NCBI RefSeq assembly: GCF_004010195.1
Contig: NC_057718.1
Coordinates: 103,153,276-103,217,275, forward strand
DNA length: 64,000 bases
Origin: Chiloscyllium plagiosum
Taxonomy: Eukaryota
Direction of reading: 5' to 3'
Shown here: positions 3,113 to 60,419 of the stretch, piece after piece
How positions within the stretch are numbered: position 1 is the stretch's first letter
Layout of the letters: every line of letters starts with the position of its first letter
Notes under the pieces: model-generated
Database searches by the model: none
Told to the model about the DNA's origin: nothing
The model's input: the letters and a program-made list of their open reading frames with translations, nothing else
Translations under genes and position numbers: made by a program

Positions 3113-3808
3113 AGGAGAGAGTGAGGACTGCAGATGCTGGAGAGTCAGTGTCGAAAAGTGTGGTGCTGGAAAAGCACAGCAGGTCAGTCTGCATCTGAGG
3201 AGCAGGAGAGTCAATGTTTCAGTCATAAGCCCTTCATCAGGAATGTGGGGGGAGGGGACTGAGAGATAAAGAGGAGGGTGGGAGTGGGGCTGGGGGGGAA
3301 GGTAGCTGGGAAAACAATAGGTAGATGCAGGTGGGAGGTGATGATGATAGGTCGGAGGGGAGGGTATGTCAGATAGGACAGATAGGACAGGTCAAGAGAG
3401 CGGTGCCAAGATGGAGGGTTGGATCTGGGATGAGGTGGGGGGAGGGGAGATGAGGAAACTGGTGAACTTGACATTGACCCCGTGTGGTTGGAGGGTCACA
3501 AGGCAGAAAATGAGGCGTTCTTCCTCCAGGCGTCGGGGGCAAATCCTGGGTCTCCTCCACCACCAAATCCAAGCCATCCGATGCCTAGAGGAAGAACATG
3601 TCATATTCTGCCTTGGGACCCTCCAACCACACGAAATCAATGTCAAGTTCACCAGTTTCCTCATCTCCCCTTCCCACATCTTATCCCAGATCCAACTCTC
3701 CAACATACCCCACATTCCTGATTCAGGCCTATGCCTGAAACGTCGACCCTCCTGCTCCTCGGATGTTGCCTGAACTGTTGTGCTTTTCCAGCACCACACT
3801 TTTCGACT
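3113..3808. mobile_element. Penelope-like (Neptune-type) inverted pair, family A, inserted as one unit
   Basis: Minus copy 3113-3540 (RRLEEERLIFCLVTLQPHGVNVKF) abuts plus copy 3541-3808 (CLEEEHVIFCLGTLQPHEINVKF), matching a GIY-YIG endonuclease C-terminus. Both carry hammerhead motifs. 13/15 direct repeats flank it (3097-3111, 3809-3823). Confidence 0.8.
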
Positions 3809-3839
3809 CTTCCCTTCTGTACCATCTGACACCTCCACC

Positions 3840-4864: not shown

Positions 4865-5440
4865 CAGGCTATTCAGCCCTGTGCGCTGCACCCCCGTTCT
4901 ATACGATCATGGCTGATCTAGTTTCTGCTTCAACTCCACTTTCCTACCTGCTCTCCATAACCCTCCAACCCATTACAATTTTAAAAACCTGGAGGAAAGG
5001 AGGACTGCAGATGCTGGAGATCAGAGTCGAGAGTGTGGTGCTGGAAAAGCACAGCAGGTCAGACAACATCCGAGGAGCAGGAGAGTCGATGCTTTGGGCA
5101 TGAGCCCTTCATCAGGAATCCTGATGAATGGATTCTGCCTGAAATGTCGATTCTGCTGCTCTTTGGATGCTGCCTGACCTGCTGTGCTTTTCCAGCACCA
5201 CACTCTCAACAATTTAAAAAAACCTGTCTACCTCCTCCTTAAAGTTACTCAATGTCCCAGCATCCACCGCACTCTGGGGTAATGAATTTAACAGATTCAC
5301 CACCCTTTGAGAGACGTGATTCCTCCTCATCTCTGTTTTAAACCTGCTACCCCTTATCCTACAACAATGACCTCTCATTCTAGATTGCCTCACATGAGGA
5401 AACATCCTCGTTTCATCGACATTATCAATCCCCTTGAGCA
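4865..5440 (-). mobile_element. CR1 LINE 3' fragment, interrupted by a PLE cassette
   Basis: ORF 5214-5441(-) SRMRGHCCRIRGSRFKTEMRRNHVSQRVVNLLNSLPQSAVDA matches the CR1 ORF2 C-terminus. Confidence 0.85.
4992..5208. mobile_element. Fold-back PLE family A cassette with two head-to-head degenerate hammerheads
   Basis: Inverted arms centred near 5117 (TTCATCAGGAATCCTGATGAA); imperfect TSD ACAATTTTAAAAACCTG 4975-4991 / ACAATTTAAAAAAACCTG 5209-5226. Confidence 0.8.
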
Positions 5441-13870: not shown

Positions 13871-15137
13871 AATGGAACATTGCCAAGAAAAAAATGCAGA
13901 TAATACCCCTTTTAATTTTTGCATCAATTAACGCAGTGACTTTGCTTTGATAAAAGTGGATGTAATGGTAGATGGAATTCCACTGGCTTCTCCAGCTGTG
14001 CAGATATGAAGGTGTCACTGATCACACTAATGAGTCCCCTTTTTTTTTATGTGTAGAAACTCATTTTCCTGACTTTGGGACTCGCCATTTATGTAATGTC
14101 CTCACCTTCGATTCTTTCCTGAACGTATAGGGTTACAGTGAATGGTAACGATGGGGAGTGGGCAGCTGGCTTTGAACTCTGCTTGGACCTCCCCCGGTTG
14201 TGAGCTTAATGGTCTCTGTCTAGATGCAACATCCACTAACCAGCTCCCCATGCCACCTCCACCCTGCCTGCCAAGGCTGAGTTAACCTAGTGAAAACAAC
14301 TAGCCGTAAAGGGTAACACTTATGGATGCTTTACTGAAATATGTCCTTCAATTCTCTTCACTAGAAGACAAACAATTATCTTCACTGAAAGATAAAAGAG
14401 AAATGTTTAATCTCCGGGCTGGTGTTAGATATGCAGATAAATCATCCTGGATATTCAGGAAACACTGGGACTCATTAATGCTTCAGATCTAACAATATTT
14501 AACCATTCCAATAATTCACTTGTGACACAAATTTTGTTTTATTTTATCAGTGTCCATTTAAATGCAATCTATTCATTACATTGATCAAACTGTGGTCAAC
14601 CATCTGGTTTGGCTCATGTCAAATTAGCCTTACTGGTCAAAGCAGGCATTATACCAACCGACCTAAAACCTTCAGCTCTATGTGGCTCTCAGACAAATTA
14701 TTAACAGTTATAAGAGGTTTGGAGATCTTTTGGCAAACAATTGTTTCATAAGCTCTGTGTAGCTAAGTGCCAACTATGGCTCAATGGGCAGCACTCGAGC
14801 CTGTGAGTCAGCAATGCTGTAGATTTAAGTTCTAATCCAGGGCCTGACACTCCAGTGTAGTACTGAGGGGGTGTTGTCCTTCATCTGGATTTTAAACCAA
14901 GTTATCCCCTCTCAGGCTGATGTAAAACTTCACCTGGTCACTATTTTGAGTGAAAGCAGAGGGGGTCTGTTCCAGGGTCAATATGTATCCCTCAGCCAAA
15001 AGCACAAAGTGGATGATCTAGTCCTTATCGCATTGTTATTTTATGGGATCAAACTATCTGCAGTTTGGCTTCCATATTTTCCTCCTTACAAACGCAAATG
15101 TGTAATTTAATTGGTTGTAAAGGGTTTTATGGAAGGC

Positions 15138-15321
15138 GAAACTTTATTGCTGGAACAGCACAGCAGGTCAGGCAGCATCCAGGGAACAGGAGATTCAACG
15201 TTTCGGGCACAGGCCCTTCTTCAGGAATCTCCTGTTCCCTGGATGCTGCCTGACCTGCTGTGCTGTTCCAGCAATAAAGTTTCAACTTTGATCTCCAGCA
15301 TCTGCAGACCTCACTTTCTCC
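15138..15321. mobile_element. Fold-back PLE family A cassette
   Basis: Perfect 59-bp inverted arms 15138-15196 / 15225-15283; perfect 13-bp TSD TTTTATGGAAGGC at 15125-15137 / 15322-15334. Confidence 0.9.
15197..15224 (-). ncRNA. Minimal hammerhead ribozyme core closed by a 59-bp helix I
   Basis: Minus strand reads CUGAAGA(A)-GGGC CUGU GCCC-GAAAC-GUU, exactly filling the spacer between the arms. Confidence 0.7.
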
Positions 15322-15424
15322 TTTTATGGAAGGCCCCAAGGTATGAAAAGTGCTACATAAATGCAGTTCTTTCTTTCAGTAATATTTTTGCAAATGAAAA
15401 TGATTAACAGACATGACATCTTCC

Positions 15425-15545
15425 AGTTTGAACTGAACCGTTAACTCTAACTTCTCTTCACAGATGCTGCCAGACCTGCTGAGATTTTCCAGCAATTTCT
15501 GTTTTTGTTTCTGATTTACAGCATCTGCAGTTTTTTGTTTTTATG
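15425..15545 (+). mobile_element. Penelope-like 3' end, family B
   Basis: GAACCGTTAACTCT..CACAGATGCTGCCAGACCTGCTGAGATTTTCCAGCAATTTCTGTTTTTGTTTC. Confidence 0.65.
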
Positions 15546-15679: not shown

Positions 15680-17224
15680 CAGTGGAAACCTGATTATCAG
15701 AACGAGATGGGCAGGCACTATTTGGTTTGTATAATCAATTATTTGGAAAATCTATTAAATGCCTTTCCTCTGGGGCTCGGAGTTTTAAAGTCTGCTCCCC
15801 GTTCTGGGGTGCGCGCAAGCCCCCACCCTCAACACCACTCCCCACCAGCCCCAGTCCAGCACCGCCCCCCCAAACCAGTCCAACCCCTGCTGCCCGCTCC
15901 CCAACCTGGTCCAACCCCGCACTCAAGCACAATGCGTGCGAGTCCAACCCCGCCCCCAACACAGTCCACTGCCAAACTCCGCCCACCCCTAGGGCAGCCA
16001 CACTGTACACCAAGACTGCTGCAGTTGTCTTTGTGGGGTAAGTCTCCAAATACCACACACAGAGCCACAGCTACACACACACAAAACTTCTTACAGCAAA
16101 TGTTTAACAGATTCCACGTTTGTACAGGGGAACCTCGATTATTCAAATACCAATTATCCGAAAATCGGATTATCTGAAGGAGATTTCGAGGTCCCGATAG
16201 AAACATTACATCAAAGACGTGTTTCCAACAGTGATCGTGTCTTTTTTTTACAGTGATTAAACAGGCACTGTCTCCAAATGACTGACCTCCCGCCCTCTCT
16301 CGACCCCACCCATTCCCTGTGGTTCTAGAGGGATGTACCCTCCTTCCCAAGATAATCTCTCCCACATTGTCCTGTGCAGGGTAAACGTGGAACCTGTCAA
16401 AAATTTGCAGTAAGAAGGTGTGTGTGTGTGGCTGTGGCTGTGGGTGTGCTATTTGGGGACTTACCCCACAGAGGCAACAGCAGCAGTCTTGTTGTTGGTG
16501 TGCAGTCCAGATACCCCCGAGAGGGGTTGGGGGTGGATGTGGGGTGGTCGGCAGGGGGCTGTGTTGGATGGAGGGGCTCGCGCGCTTTGTGCTGGGGGAG
16601 CGGGGGTTGGTTGNNNNNNNNNNNNNNNNNNNNNNNNNNNNNNNNNNNNNNNNNNNNNNNNNNNNNNNNNNNNNNNNNNNNNNNNNNNNNNNNNNNNNNN
16701 NNNNNNNNNNNNNNNNNNNNNNNNNNNNNNNNNNNNNNNNNNNNNNNNNNNNNNNNNNNNNNNNNNNNNNNNNNNNNNNNNNNNNNNNNNNNNNNNNNNN
16801 NNNNNNNNNNNNNNNNNNNNNNNNNNNNNNNNNNNNNNNNNNNNNNNNNNNNNNNNNNNNNNNNNNNNNNNNNNNNNNNNNNNNNNNNNNNNNNNNNNNN
16901 NNNNNNNNNNNNNNNNNNNNNNNNNNNNNNNNNNNNNNNNNNNNNNNNNNNNNNNNNNNNNNTGGGGGACAGGGTTGGACGGGGTTGTGGAGCGGGGGGG
17001 GGCGGGGTTGGATGGGGCTGGGAGGTGGGGTAGGACTGGATTGGGGGGGCGGTGTTGGGGGCTGGGGCCTCGTGCGCTGGGTGTTGCTGCAGTCTCCTGA
17101 ACGGGGAGCAGAATTTAAAAACTCCGAGCCCCAGAGGAAAGGCATTTAATCGATTAACCAAATAATCGATTATCCGAACGAAATAGTGCCCGCCCATCTC
17201 GTTCAGATAATCGAGTTTCCACTG
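15680..17224. mobile_element. Non-autonomous Tc1/mariner-pogo (Tigger-like) fold-back DNA transposon
   Basis: TA|CAGTGGAAACCTGATTATC ... GATAATCGAGTTTCCACTG|TA. 15680-16122 is an inverted, diverged copy of about 16380-17224. No transposase ORF is visible. Confidence 0.85.
16614..16962. other. Assembly gap (349 N) in a G-rich low-complexity tract
   Basis: Run of N. Confidence 1.
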
Positions 17225-30274: not shown

Positions 30275-30774
30275 NNNNNNNNNNNNNNNNNNNNNNNNNN
30301 NNNNNNNNNNNNNNNNNNNNNNNNNNNNNNNNNNNNNNNNNNNNNNNNNNNNNNNNNNNNNNNNNNNNNNNNNNNNNNNNNNNNNNNNNNNNNNNNNNNN
30401 NNNNNNNNNNNNNNNNNNNNNNNNNNNNNNNNNNNNNNNNNNNNNNNNNNNNNNNNNNNNNNNNNNNNNNNNNNNNNNNNNNNNNNNNNNNNNNNNNNNN
30501 NNNNNNNNNNNNNNNNNNNNNNNNNNNNNNNNNNNNNNNNNNNNNNNNNNNNNNNNNNNNNNNNNNNNNNNNNNNNNNNNNNNNNNNNNNNNNNNNNNNN
30601 NNNNNNNNNNNNNNNNNNNNNNNNNNNNNNNNNNNNNNNNNNNNNNNNNNNNNNNNNNNNNNNNNNNNNNNNNNNNNNNNNNNNNNNNNNNNNNNNNNNN
30701 NNNNNNNNNNNNNNNNNNNNNNNNNNNNNNNNNNNNNNNNNNNNNNNNNNNNNNNNNNNNNNNNNNNNNNNNNN
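30275..30774. other. Assembly gap (exactly 500 N, probably a placeholder length)
   Basis: Run of N. Confidence 1.
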
Positions 30775-43025: not shown

Positions 43026-43361
43026 AATCTTCTCACATCCTGTAGGTTTGTTCATTTTTAAGGTTCCTGTTGAGATTTCTCAAGGGATATGTTTTTGATT
43101 TTTGGGCACTATTTTTTGGTTCTCAGGGCTACTTTCTCAATCTTTTAAATTCCTTTATTAGGGGATGCCTTACACAATGACATTACCTTCTGGATTTCTA
43201 TTGTCATGTGTGATATCTGAAAACAACAGAAGCAGAATTAGAAGGATTGATCACATTTTCAATAATTATCAATCCTCCATTAGATTGAAAGCACTAATAC
43301 ACAGGAAAGCAATTGTTTCCTCAGTCCCACAGTTTTCAAATTGGCACAACTAAGGCATTAG

Positions 43362-43570
43362 GAGAAAGTGAGGACTGCAGATGCTGGAGACCAGAGTTGA
43401 AAAATGTGATGCTGCAAAAACACAGCATGCCAGGCAGCATCCGAGGAGCAGGAGAATCGACGTTTCGGGCATAAGCCCTTCCTGAAGAAGGGCATATGCC
43501 CGAAACGGCGATTCTCCTGTTCCTCGGATGCTGCCTGGCATGCTGTGTTTTTCCAGCACCACATTTTTCA
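43362..43570. mobile_element. Fold-back PLE family A cassette
   Basis: Inverted arms around CCCTTCCTGAAGAAGGG; plus-strand core CTGAAGAAGGGCATATGCCCGAAAC at 43482-43506; perfect 16-bp TSD ACAACTAAGGCATTAG at 43346-43361 / 43571-43586. Confidence 0.9.
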
Positions 43571-47500: not shown

Positions 47501-48095
47501 AAACCCAATGTTTTATTTTGTTGATGTGGTAGAACATATGCTTCCATATGGGAATAGATATGCAGATATTATTATAATATTTGATGCATGATATTTAGTC
47601 TGATACTAGCCTTGGGTCCTGGTCTAATCAGGAAAGGAACCTTTGGGTTAGACTGTACAGATGTCAAGGGGACAGGTTGGCAGTGGGTGTGGTGATTGTG
47701 TAAAATTACAGCTCTGTGGATATATTGCACCTTATCACAGGTTAACCTGACTGCTGGTTTGTCACTGGTTTTGTTTTCAAGGGGCCTGTTTCTCCTATTG
47801 CTGGTTGCAAATTGCTTTTCCAAGACGAAGAGTTCTGGTCGTTTCTCTGGTGGGATTTTCTGATCAGAGGTATTCCCTTCTCAGCAGCTGTTCAGCTTTG
47901 CAGTCCAATCTTGCAGGGGTCCTATTTTGATAGATTGTTTTTTTTTTAAAGTCCATCTCTTCTCCAAATGATTTTGATCTGTTTACTGACCTTCCCTGTG
48001 GCCACAACTTTCTAGGGAGTGGATCCTGATGCTGCCACCATCTTTTATCAGCTTTTATCATGTGCTTCAAAAACAGACTGGTCACAGAAAAGACA

Positions 48096-48320
48096 GAGCT
48101 GAAAACGTGGTGCTGGAAAAGCACAGCAGGTCAGGCAGCATCCAAGGAGCAGGAGAATCGACGTTTCGGGCATGAGCCCTTCTTCAGGAATGAGGAAAGT
48201 GAAGAAGGGCTCATGCCCGAAACGTCGATTCTCCTGCTCCTTTGATGCTGCCTGACCTGCTGCGCTTTTCCAGCAACACATTTTCGGCTCTGATCTCCAG
48301 CATCTGCAGCCCTCACTTTC
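48096..48320. mobile_element. Fold-back PLE family A cassette
   Basis: Minus-strand intact core CTGAAGAAGGGCTCATGCCCGAAACGTC (48160-48187) and a plus-strand copy lacking the first C; perfect 14-bp TSD TCACAGAAAAGACA at 48082-48095 / 48321-48334. Confidence 0.9.
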
Positions 48321-48874
48321 TCACAGAAAAGACAAAGTCAAGAAAAGTCATCAGGCCTAGATTTCAAATCAACATTATTTATTGCACAATCATACTGAAC
48401 ATTGCTTTACATGGCCATCATAAATAAAGTAGACTCTGACTTATATTATTTCAAGACCATGCTATCTTCTTCATGTGTTCACATTTGTGCTCTCCCAATT
48501 GACAGAGTTCCCTCTCATGTTCTGGTTGCACTATATTCTAACTCCGCCCACACTACTATTTATCACCAGAGATGTGCAGCTCCATGATATTATCACAAGG
48601 CTGCTCCGTGGTCCTGAAGCCCTTACACAGCAGTTTGTGATAATCTTTTACCTGATCAAACAGAATTAAAATTCCAATCACTGTTTGGATCGCTGGAAAT
48701 TAAAGAGGATTTGGGATAAACTGTCACAGGTTACAGCTGCACAACACAGCGATCCTTAATTGTAAGCCCAGCTTTTCACCTTGTAATCTGAAACAATCTG
48801 AAAATTACAGTTATTTTGTCATTATCCTCTTTTTAGTCTGTTCACGCTTAGCATGTTACCTTGTTCAGCAGAGT

Positions 48875-52585: not shown

Positions 52586-52780
52586 GTCGAGAATGTGGCG
52601 CTGGAAAAGCACAGCAGGTCAGGCAGCATCCGGGGAGCAGGAGAATCAACATTTCGGAATAAAGAGCTTATGCCTGAAACATCGATTCTCCTGCTCCTTG
52701 GATGCTGCCTGACCTGCTGTACTTTTCCAGAACCATACTCTCGACTTTGATCTCCAGCATCTGTAGTCCTAACTTTCTCC
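52586..52780. mobile_element. Fold-back PLE family A cassette (older, centre deleted)
   Basis: Inverted arms around 52660; degenerate TSD CTGCCTGTCTGCACAGTC / CTGCCCGTTTGCATAGCC (14/18). Confidence 0.8.
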
Positions 52781-52799
52781 TGCCCGTTTGCATAGCCAT

Positions 52800-57958: not shown

Positions 57959-58938
57959 TGGAACCAATGGGTATCGGGGGCAAGCTCTCTGCTGGCTGGA
58001 GCCATACTTGGCACAGAGGAAGATGGTCATGGTTGTTGGAAGTCACCATTCTGACTTGGAAATATATCGCTGTTCCTTCAGTCAAAATCCTGGAATTCCC
58101 TCCCTAAGGGCATTGTGGGTCTACCCACAGCACGTGGACTGCAGCGGTTTAGGAAGGCAGCTCAACCCCACCTTCTCAAGGGGCAACTAGGTATAGGTGA
58201 TAAACACCAGCCCATGTCTCACGAGTGAATTTATGAAAATATGTAAATAAAATGCAGGGGCTGAAAAACTTTGTAATGCTGTCATGTGTGCCAATTTGTT
58301 TAAAATTATCCACATTCTAATGGATAGCTGCTGCATTTCACATGACTCCATTTGTAATGTTATCGGAACAAACAGAAACACAGAATTATGTTATAGATTT
58401 CCTACTTCAGGGCAGGAATTCTGCTGCCATTGTTCCGGGACTGGGTGGGGGGTGGTATATGACAACCTCACTACATTGTTGATGCCAGGGAGCATTGCTC
58501 ATTGATTAGCTTGGGTAATCACATCTTCGTTAATCAAATTTCTCTAATATTCTGTCACATTTTTTACATTATGCTGCATTATTTTTCCAATTTGATTTCT
58601 TCAGTGCTTGACGTTGTTTTGTCTGTGGCTAAAGTGATTAGATTACAGAGTCTTGCATGGCTGTATCTTTAAGCTGGCTGGCCCAAGCTGGGACAGGCTA
58701 TGTCTGATAATGCTCCATAGGGTATGGATAGATGCAGGACAACAGGTTTGGTTCAGTGGGTGATGGAGGGAGCAGTAATTCCTAGAGAAAGAGGTGCGGG
58801 TGGTGTTGGTCTGCAAAATATTACTTTTATAGTGGGGTTGCTTTCAACAGAGGCATAGTGATTACTTAGGCATTCTGTCAAATAAAAATGAAACAAAGGC
58901 TGGAGAAAAAACTATGCAATTTCTTTCTTTTTCAAAAC

Positions 58939-59220
58939 AAAGTGCTTTCTAGAATGGTTTGTACAATTTTTTTATTTTTAAAAAAAGTCCATTCTAAAAT
59001 GGTATTTTCTTTTTGTAAAGCAGTGCATTTTAAAATGGCTCGCACAATTTTTTATTTAAAAAGTGCATTCTAAAATGGTTTATACAATTGTTTTTATTTT
59101 AGAAAAAGTGCAGTCTAAAATGATTTACACGTTATTTTCTTTTGGTAAAGAAGTGCATTTGAAAATGGTTTATAAATTTTTTATTTTTTTTTAAAAAGTG
59201 CATTCTAAAATGGTTTATAC
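58939..59220. repeat. AT-rich minisatellite, 7 units of about 36-45 bp
   Basis: Consensus AAAAGTGCATTCTAAAATGGTTTATACAATTTTTTATTTT. Confidence 0.9.
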
Positions 59221-60419
59221 ATCATACAGATTTGATGATAGCTTCATTTAATGAACCCACTCTGGTGTACTCGTGACCGCAATTACACATCGACTTTGCT
59301 CATAAATTACTTCTCAACCTTTAAATATCACTTCTGACAAACAAAAGAAAGAATATGTAACTGAATTTCCTGAAGGGTTTGAAATATCAGGTTGGGATTA
59401 TTATTGTTTATGTCTCTGTTTTTGTAGCTCTGATGTCTCCATAGTCTGCTGTGTTCTGTGCCTGGCACTGATGGATGACCAACACAGTAGCTTATTGGAA
59501 ATGGGTTGATTTATAACCCTCCGTCTTTCAATCTAATGGCTTCATTTCTTTTCCAACAGCACATGATGTCACAGCCAAGGTCACCCCGCCAATGCCCTTT
59601 CTGTTGTCTGGTTGCTGATGGCCAGATTGTTTGAGATTCAGGCGTGTGAGAAGGTAGCCTTTAATTTTTAATTTTTTTCCCCTTCTCTCTCTCTCTTTCT
59701 CTTCTTGATAAGTATAAGCCAACAGTAGATTAAATGCCTTCTTATATTCAGTTCACACTGCTTGTCAGACAGTGGGCTGCTTTATGATGCTGGGTGAGAA
59801 ACTGCATTACTCACATCTCCTTTAAATGACCAACATCAAATATATACAGCTCCCATTAAGGGCAGAATCAATAAAAATACCATTAAGATAGTAAAAGTTG
59901 CTGATATTAGTGGAGCCCAAACAAAATATTTGATTTTCTTTCAGATAGTTAGTGAGATGGGATAGAAACACTCTGAGAAAAGAGATCAGGCTATGCCTAT
60001 GGTCAATAATTTATCTCTCAGATTCATATGGGTATATCTCCAGATATTGCCTTCTGTCTATTGATTTCCACATCATGATTTGTCATAAGCCACCCCTAAC
60101 TCAAGGGGAAAATATACCCTGTGTCCAGTCAGGCCATGCTGATAGAATGGAGAGAGGTTTTCATTAAATTCAAAACTCCTGGGCTCCATCACAACTCGTA
60201 GGCATTTTACAACACTCAGTTCCTGCAAACTGGTTTTTATCTGTAAGCACGCAGGGAAGCAAGTGATTTATTTCAAACTGTTTGTTTCTTTTTAAACCTC
60301 CATAAGAAGTCATTTGAAACATATGGACTCAGCAGTTATATGCAATGGGGGTGCTTTCACGATGCCGTATTCCTATTAGCGACAAGGACAACAGTGAGGA
60401 CCTGACTTCGCCGGCTGAT

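Follow-up and report, generated by a model that had tools for sequence, protein, structure and literature searches.

The 184-bp insertion at positions 15138–15321 of the window, i.e. of the whole 64,000-nucleotide stretch of the Chiloscyllium plagiosum genome that was analyzed, is a recent, non-coding stump of an endonuclease-bearing Penelope-like element (PLE), and its architecture and its motif have already been published for such elements. It is probable (about 0.8) that the insertion arose from two separately primed cDNAs of a PLE which were joined via a 4-nt DNA microhomology, a process that needs neither folding nor cleavage of a ribozyme. Taken alone, the locus matters little, and the pattern across the family is of modest value: the geometry of tail versus junction argues for two microhomology-joined cDNAs over self-priming as the origin of the PLE inverted repeats, a reading which fits the two-strand, two-start in vitro activity of an anole element.

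The two arms of the insertion (15138–15196 and 15225–15283) are exact reverse complements with 59 of 59 pairs formed, and pairing ends outward at 15137/15284 and inward at 15197/15224. With N-runs excluded, no other perfect hairpin in the window is as long, the next measuring 43 bp; the predicted fold of the 59-bp hairpin has –129.4 kcal/mol (z = –21.6 against 200 shuffles). The 28-nt spacer, read on the minus strand, is CUGAAGA-A-GGGC-CUGU-GCCC-GAAAC-GUU, which corresponds to the minimal hammerhead motif without a spare base. A single-copy tail of 38 nt past the right arm completes the insertion, and the target site duplication (TSD), a 13-mer that does not extend to a 14-nt repeat, encloses the entire head-to-head unit. 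A contig of a related organism (n = 1) fuses 15124 to 15322 and thus represents the empty site with one TSD copy. In two other samples of the species, contigs extend across the left and across the right border between flank and element with 0–1 differences, each of them covering a border and none the whole element. Because of the empty site and these border-crossing contigs, the insertion is regarded as real, young and correctly bounded, and not as an assembly artefact. The perfect hairpin, the loop consisting exactly of the core, and the 13-bp TSD of a young insertion had all been reported in a first-pass annotation of the sequence, and they hold. Assembly gaps (N-runs) at 30275–30774 and near 16200 of the window give rise to spurious hairpins and open reading frames (ORFs).

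Table 1 Features of the insertion and its borders (window positions; in the family numbering, the C of CUGA is +1, the 5′ strand of helix I is –3 to 0, and the first base past the notional cut is 29)
Feature	Position	Strand	Basis or description
Left TSD copy, 13 bp	15125..15137	+	Repeat; empty site in related organism
Tail-less inverted arm, PLE pseudo-LTR piece	15138..15228	-	Family positions –3 (first base of helix I), through the core, to 87
Minimal hammerhead core	15197..15224	-	CUGAAGA, one extra A, GAAAC-GUU; motif definition as in PMC4209133
Core helix II, 4 bp, CUGU loop	15216-15205	-	Within core 15197..15224
Notional cut site	between 15197 and 15196	-	Hammerhead core anatomy
4-nt microhomology (junction), in both arms	15225..15228	.	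GAAT on +, ATTC on -
Direct, tail-bearing arm	15225..15321	+	Begins at, or up to 4 nt from, the notional cleavage site (29); reaches distal family end (125)
Single-copy PLE tail, 38 nt	15284..15321	+	34 nt if counted from the family's modal short end, 90–91
Right TSD copy, 13 bp	15322..15334	+	Matches left copy; empty site

The arms are part of a dispersed repeat family, of which the window contains about ten pieces. A 38-nt motif covering arm and tail of the young subfamily has 9,967 exact matches in the 3.56-Gb genome, as compared to none for the reversed-pattern control. Longer copies of the family carry, upstream of the core, a piece from the C-terminal end of a GIY-YIG endonuclease ORF; three loci (L034, L183 and L184) extend from the ORF end to the core, and locus L041 matches the Pfam model PF01541 with an E value of 1.7e-5 (25.4 bits, cutoff 22.6). 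A full-length parent with a reverse transcriptase was not retrieved among the long copies fetched, four of four of which end at about 410–520 bp. In a sample of 90 copies, drawn from the first 100 matches to the motif as ordered by genome position and located entirely on contig C1, 53 are palindromic and 37 are monomers or other forms; these figures include the reference locus L034, and one copy with an indel (L043) is misread as a monomer. Applied to the 9,967 matches, the ratio of 53/90 corresponds to approximately 5,900 young palindromes genome-wide, among which 15138–15321 is one. Four older palindromes of the family lie in the window at 48094–48322, 43361–43567, 4995–5208 and 52589–52781, with centres that differ and are near the hammerhead. 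An older, longer head-to-head insertion occupies 3113–3810; its inner arms contain 3′ UTR sequence and the apparent end of the endonuclease ORF.

The insertion architecture of endonuclease-bearing PLEs has been described by Arkhipova et al. 2013 (PMC3846280) and Craig et al. 2021 (PMC8557442). As in the stretch studied here, an inverted, 5′-truncated pLTR copy lies head to head with the element, a tail of 30–40 bp is found on one arm only, a TSD surrounds the unit, palindromes occur at the inverted junction, and the end of the GIY-YIG ORF is located upstream in longer copies; 15138–15321 differs in that, being a stump, it has no ORF between the arms. In their accessible text, these papers give no map of the junctions with respect to the hammerhead, and they prefer self-priming as the mechanism, a route excluded here by the position of the tail; the origin of the PLE inverted repeats is called unresolved in PMC8557442. 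For the Anolis element Poseidon PAc, Frangieh et al. 2024 (PMC11167929) reported that the tail is the interval between two start sites of reverse transcription, that the two strands of the target are each cut and extended in vitro, and that a hammerhead located just upstream is dispensable for insertion. The position of the hammerhead is the same in our family, for which two start sites bounding the tail and cutting and extension on two strands would likewise apply, whereas that work deals with one anole element in vitro and, in its accessible text, does not describe the joining of cDNAs or inverted junctions. Within the scope of our literature search, which covered the main text of mostly openly available papers, we found no published link between hammerhead helix I and the inverted junctions of PLEs, and no map of such junctions relative to the hammerhead.

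Non-LTR retrozymes (Cervera and de la Pena 2020, PMC7229834; Li et al. 2026, 10.64898/2026.07.22.740005) are also non-autonomous, PLE-derived and equipped with a type I hammerhead, and the family of 15138–15321 likewise includes head-to-tail arrays of 224-bp units (L078 and L116). However, a retrozyme is defined by repeats arranged head to tail, every unit of which has its own hammerhead, while 15138–15321 is head to head and has one core; two or more head-to-tail hammerhead units are present at L078 and L116 and absent from 15138–15321. The arrays of L116 (250–820) and L078 appear retrozyme-like and could fold as dimers. That of L116 runs into about 165 bp of other sequence which, judging from a motif, we take to be possibly the start of the element's ORF.

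A search of the whole 64-kb window with Rfam at gathering thresholds gave no hits, and the assignment as a hammerhead therefore rests on comparison of the motif anatomy with the minimal hammerhead of PLEs as given in PMC4209133. Shared with the latter are the core boxes (CUGANGA and GAAA), the extra nucleotide before helix II, the closure of helix II by a G–C pair (G10.1–C11.1), the palindromic ACGU (15.2–16.2) without a helix III loop, the UH triplet, and a short natural helix I of 4 bp. The differences are that helix I has been lengthened here to 59 perfect pairs by an accident of insertion and that the triplet is GUU. Neither the loop between GAAAC and GUU nor the Rfam match expected of a canonical monomeric type I hammerhead is present. 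PMC4209133 described dual motifs on opposite strands, 100–700 bp apart, and a single motif did not cleave. Because GAAAC and GUU are not separated by a helix III loop, activity would need two molecules that swap arms. The dimer folds predicted for this RNA do not favour the active arrangement, with –257.1 kcal/mol for the arm-swapped dimer, –258.8 kcal/mol for two monomer hairpins and –262.9 kcal/mol for the best, inactive dimer; moreover, the 59-bp intramolecular stem should form first. The triplet GUU, as opposed to GUC in the family, is found in three of 22 junction-sharing loci, and its last U looks like the product of CpG decay of the family C; among RNA reads, the family base at the triplet was seen in 107 of 115 in one direction and in 51 of 53 in the other. 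By these predictions, RNA of 15138–15321 is probably inactive as a hammerhead, and a monomer should not cut. A working hammerhead-capped double-stranded RNA, as envisaged in the first-pass annotation, is doubtful in view of the missing helix III loop, the GUU triplet and the disfavoured dimer, and the limited RNA data considered gave no sign of the Dicer or ADAR processing suggested there.

In one poly(A) single-cell RNA run, of which about 2% was read, depth was zero on the unique flanks (all bins of 14600–15117 and 15340–15413), and many read starts or ends were found nowhere; as far as one sample can indicate, the locus is probably transcriptionally silent. Reads of the family stem from other copies, 97% of them continuing into unlike sequence. 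An A>G difference at 15197 in the RNA was considered as a possible editing site and rejected, as it is the family allele and is also present in DNA contigs. At 15138, 47 family RNA reads have a loose end that is rich in poly(T) (agreement 0.61), suggesting that some copies of the family act as polyadenylation sites. AATAAA is present at 15273–15278 on the plus strand and at 15143–15148 on the minus strand, just before the short end, and is a trait of the young subfamily.

The exact junction of 15138–15321, in which an arm starting at –3 meets one starting at 29, occurs at 19 loci genome-wide, corresponding to 19 of the 2,241 palindromes (0.85%) in which both arms reach position 29 and the spacer is at most 60 nt; wider spacers would lower this share. 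A count of palindromes joined exactly at the core boundary had been proposed in the first-pass annotation, and it reveals a minor class. The –3/29 junction was not encountered in the 53 palindromes of the genome-order sample, nor among the first 50 of the 2,241 listed, where a –2/+3 junction with a 3-nt overlap was commonest (11 cases). The 53 palindromes have dozens of different centres, with overlaps of 1–3 nt at the junction in 25, no overlap in 10, and inserted bases in 18. When all arms of the sample were considered (those of the 53 palindromes and the other arms of the 90 copies), 98 of 143 5′ ends were at –5 to +10, 47 of 143 at –4 to –2, and none at position 29. Arm ends thus accumulate where helix I begins, at its first base, and not at the cut site. 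Tail-less outer ends are at 89–92 in 39 of the 53 palindromes. The hairpin downstream of the ribozyme has its own recurrent junction in all subfamilies (10 among the first 50 of 378 listed). All junction tallies from listed rows were counted by eye and derive mostly from contig C1.

A uniform spread of junctions, by which the first-pass annotation would have recognized a coincidence, was not seen; junctions are non-uniform, and the one at 15138–15321 recurs. Among 22 loci sharing it, 19 carry the tail on the arm of the cut site and three on that of the core; TSDs and outer ends differ between the copies, and older subfamilies with a mismatched helix I carry the same joint (L027, L028). Because of this variation in TSDs, outer ends and tail-bearing arm, and because of the older subfamilies, we conclude that the –3/29 class arises independently each time. 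Junctions recur wherever 2–4 nt of microhomology exist, including sites distant from the ribozyme; the strong end at –3 together with short microhomology explains the non-uniformity, helix I being one 4-nt overlap among many. The microhomology equals the natural complementarity of helix I, and the joint indeed sits on this overlap, as had been noted at the outset. The further step of implicating the folded ribozyme does not follow from the frequencies (19/2,241; 0/53), nor does helix I complementarity point to a role for it, since unrelated overlaps of 2–3 nt are as common or far commoner. Three loci on contig C1 (L038, L048 and L113) share a long junction at –75/–148 with a 2-nt overlap, far upstream of the hammerhead, which may be a second recurrent joint or a duplication.

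The junction might nevertheless be set by the ribozyme. In one version, a cDNA copied from hammerhead-cut RNA, with cleavage in a dimer or assisted by a protein, would have ended at 29 and then paired with the end of a cDNA made on uncut RNA; in the other, a template switch would have been guided by helix I in its folded state. It is possible to read the direct arm as beginning right at the cut site, but the 4-nt overlap makes starts from 29 to 33 indistinguishable. Genome-wide, 109 arms match a start exactly at the cut site, as compared to 29 each for the positions –1 and +3 counted from the cut, all three patterns being equally degenerate. Of the first 100 of these 109 listed, 48 are of the helix I type; for the other kinds, about 34 of 40 fetched regions are true starts, and 13 of 18 fetched cases preceded by GA are palindromes without a loop, whose arms begin at +1 and +4. 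The 10 fetched –1 controls include no true start and consist of deletions and a duplication; among the 10 fetched +3 controls, true starts account for about half. Purine-preceded patterns are favoured because partner ends are purine-rich, which may or may not explain this roughly threefold local excess; the total absence of starts at 29 from the 143 arms of the genome-order sample speaks against a role of the cut. Where one arm begins at the hot spot at –3 and its partner in the range of about 17–33 (n = 97, a pattern that under-counts low positions bearing insertions), helix I is the commonest single junction with 18 cases. Yet shorter overlaps nearby give 12 (3 nt, at 21) and 11 (2 nt, at 23), the comparison of 18 with all 13 starts at 21 has p = 0.47, and near the cut site –4/–1 junctions are as frequent as +1/+4 junctions (six each among the first 50 of 143 listed). 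The 224-bp tandem units could provide dimers, and the anole PLE hammerhead cuts with its protein present; against this, the accessible text of the same study (PMC11167929) reports insertion without a need for cleavage and no RNA-seq read ending at the cut site. A template switch on folded RNA, as initially proposed, fails on the tail: with the tail on the arm that begins at the cut site, two cDNAs must have been involved. On balance, a junction set by the ribozyme is unlikely, and so is a role of cleavage in vivo. A broader reading, in which palindrome centres record how PLE insertion is completed by joining opposite-strand cDNAs, mostly at the capped RNA start at helix I and in a minority of up to about 1% (the present class) at the cut site, is likewise rather improbable. 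If this holds, the minority would testify to in-vivo cutting of the transposition template by a minimal hammerhead of a vertebrate, and the excess at the cut site, should it survive a proper model, bears on whether metazoan minimal hammerheads cut in vivo.

Self-priming, in which a single cDNA folds back via the helix I complement and copies itself, as proposed for PLE palindromes in PMC3846280, would account for the identity of the arms, and 4 bp closing a loop of 28 nt pose no steric difficulty. Private variants common to both arms in other copies, observed at L139 and at one further locus, also accord with it. However, it is the cDNA without the tail that extends to helix I, and a self-copy of it cannot be 38 nt longer and bear a tail; the tail-bearing cDNA, in turn, ends before the bases it would need for folding back. 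In 34 of the 53 palindromes, the tail-less arm extends beyond the other in the 5′ direction (14 show the opposite and five are ties), and the commonest junction would require a loop of 2 nt. For 15138–15321, self-priming is largely refuted by the position of the tail; it survives only with an added template switch, and we consider it very improbable. Copying of the whole 184-bp palindrome as a unit, from a MITE-like master element or a hairpin RNA, was suggested by a DNA search with the entire element, in which, among the top matches listed, 13 other loci on many contigs match all or nearly all of the 184 bases with 99–100% identity. That list was selected by similarity, and it is unlike the copies taken in genome order, on which account a fixed palindromic family was rejected. 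The copies vary in outer end, tail end, tail-bearing arm and subfamily markers on both arms, their TSDs differ in sequence and length, and the class makes up less than 1% of the palindromes amid dozens of other centres. A MITE is an invariant palindromic unit that bears a terminal inverted repeat at each end and has a TSD that is likewise fixed, whereas in this family the tail is on one side and centres and TSDs are variable. Such a master is the least probable of the origins considered.

In the preferred reading, two separately primed cDNAs were joined, as the tail on the shorter arm excludes a simple fold-back. From the anatomy, the family, the junction statistics and the empty site we infer the steps of nicking, priming, cDNA extension and joining as follows. 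The protein of the element would nick both target strands 13 bp apart, and each nick would prime a cDNA on the element RNA, a distal start leading to the tail-bearing arm and a proximal start about 34 nt further in leading to the tail-less arm. The cDNAs would usually reach the 5′ end of the RNA, probably the first base of helix I, and the 3′ ends of the two antisense cDNAs would be joined by chance complementarity of 0–4 nt, with trimming or small fill-ins. At 15138–15321, the tail-less cDNA would have stopped at the RNA start, its last four bases pairing with the complement of the four bases past the cut in the other cDNA. The loop would consist of exactly the core because these four paired bases are helix I in the RNA, and the hairpin would be a by-product, probably silent and non-cleaving. 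L139 is a long palindrome whose arms, separated by about 570 bp, have in common a deletion of 2 nt at the cut site and a substitution in the core, indicating that both arms derive from the same template or source locus.

A start exactly at –3 is shared by 2,390 arms. The base at this position is the A of TCATTCC, which fits the initiator consensus YYANWYY, and TTTTAT is located 32–27 nt upstream. In the first 100 of the 2,390 rows listed, the base before –3 is G in 44, A in 45 and T in 11, with 18 of the 45 A rows representing nine perfect –3/–3 palindromes; the excess of G has p = 2e-4 against 0.27. Copying of an RNA cap would give an extra G. Among 20 G-preceded copies fetched, the G is unexplained by target or partner arm in six, lies inside microhomology in nine, and is ambiguous in five. 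The motif match and the G excess suggest that the pile-up at –3 probably marks the RNA 5′ end; a cap-derived base would extend the overlap at 15225–15228 to 5 nt. In the RNA run mentioned above (about 2% read), read starts do not pile up at –3, and 85 reads continue upstream of helix I, which counts against a start at –3. A 3′ splice site was considered as the cause of the pile-up because a Drosophila intron ends at helix I (PMC4209133), and was rejected as there is no AG before –3. In Drosophila, transcription was reported to start 46 bp upstream of the intron, from a TATA-less internal promoter (PMC2377424), and this case thus lends no general support to a start at helix I.

Other repeats were observed in the window. 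A second short repeat family, akin to the arm sequence and with about six copies in the window, is present at 15453–15541, 120 bp downstream of the insertion. An ORF of 202 amino acids at 1807–2415 presumably represents a fragment of a LINE reverse transcriptase, which it resembles. An AT-rich tandem array of about seven copies of a 45-bp unit extends over 58913–59221.
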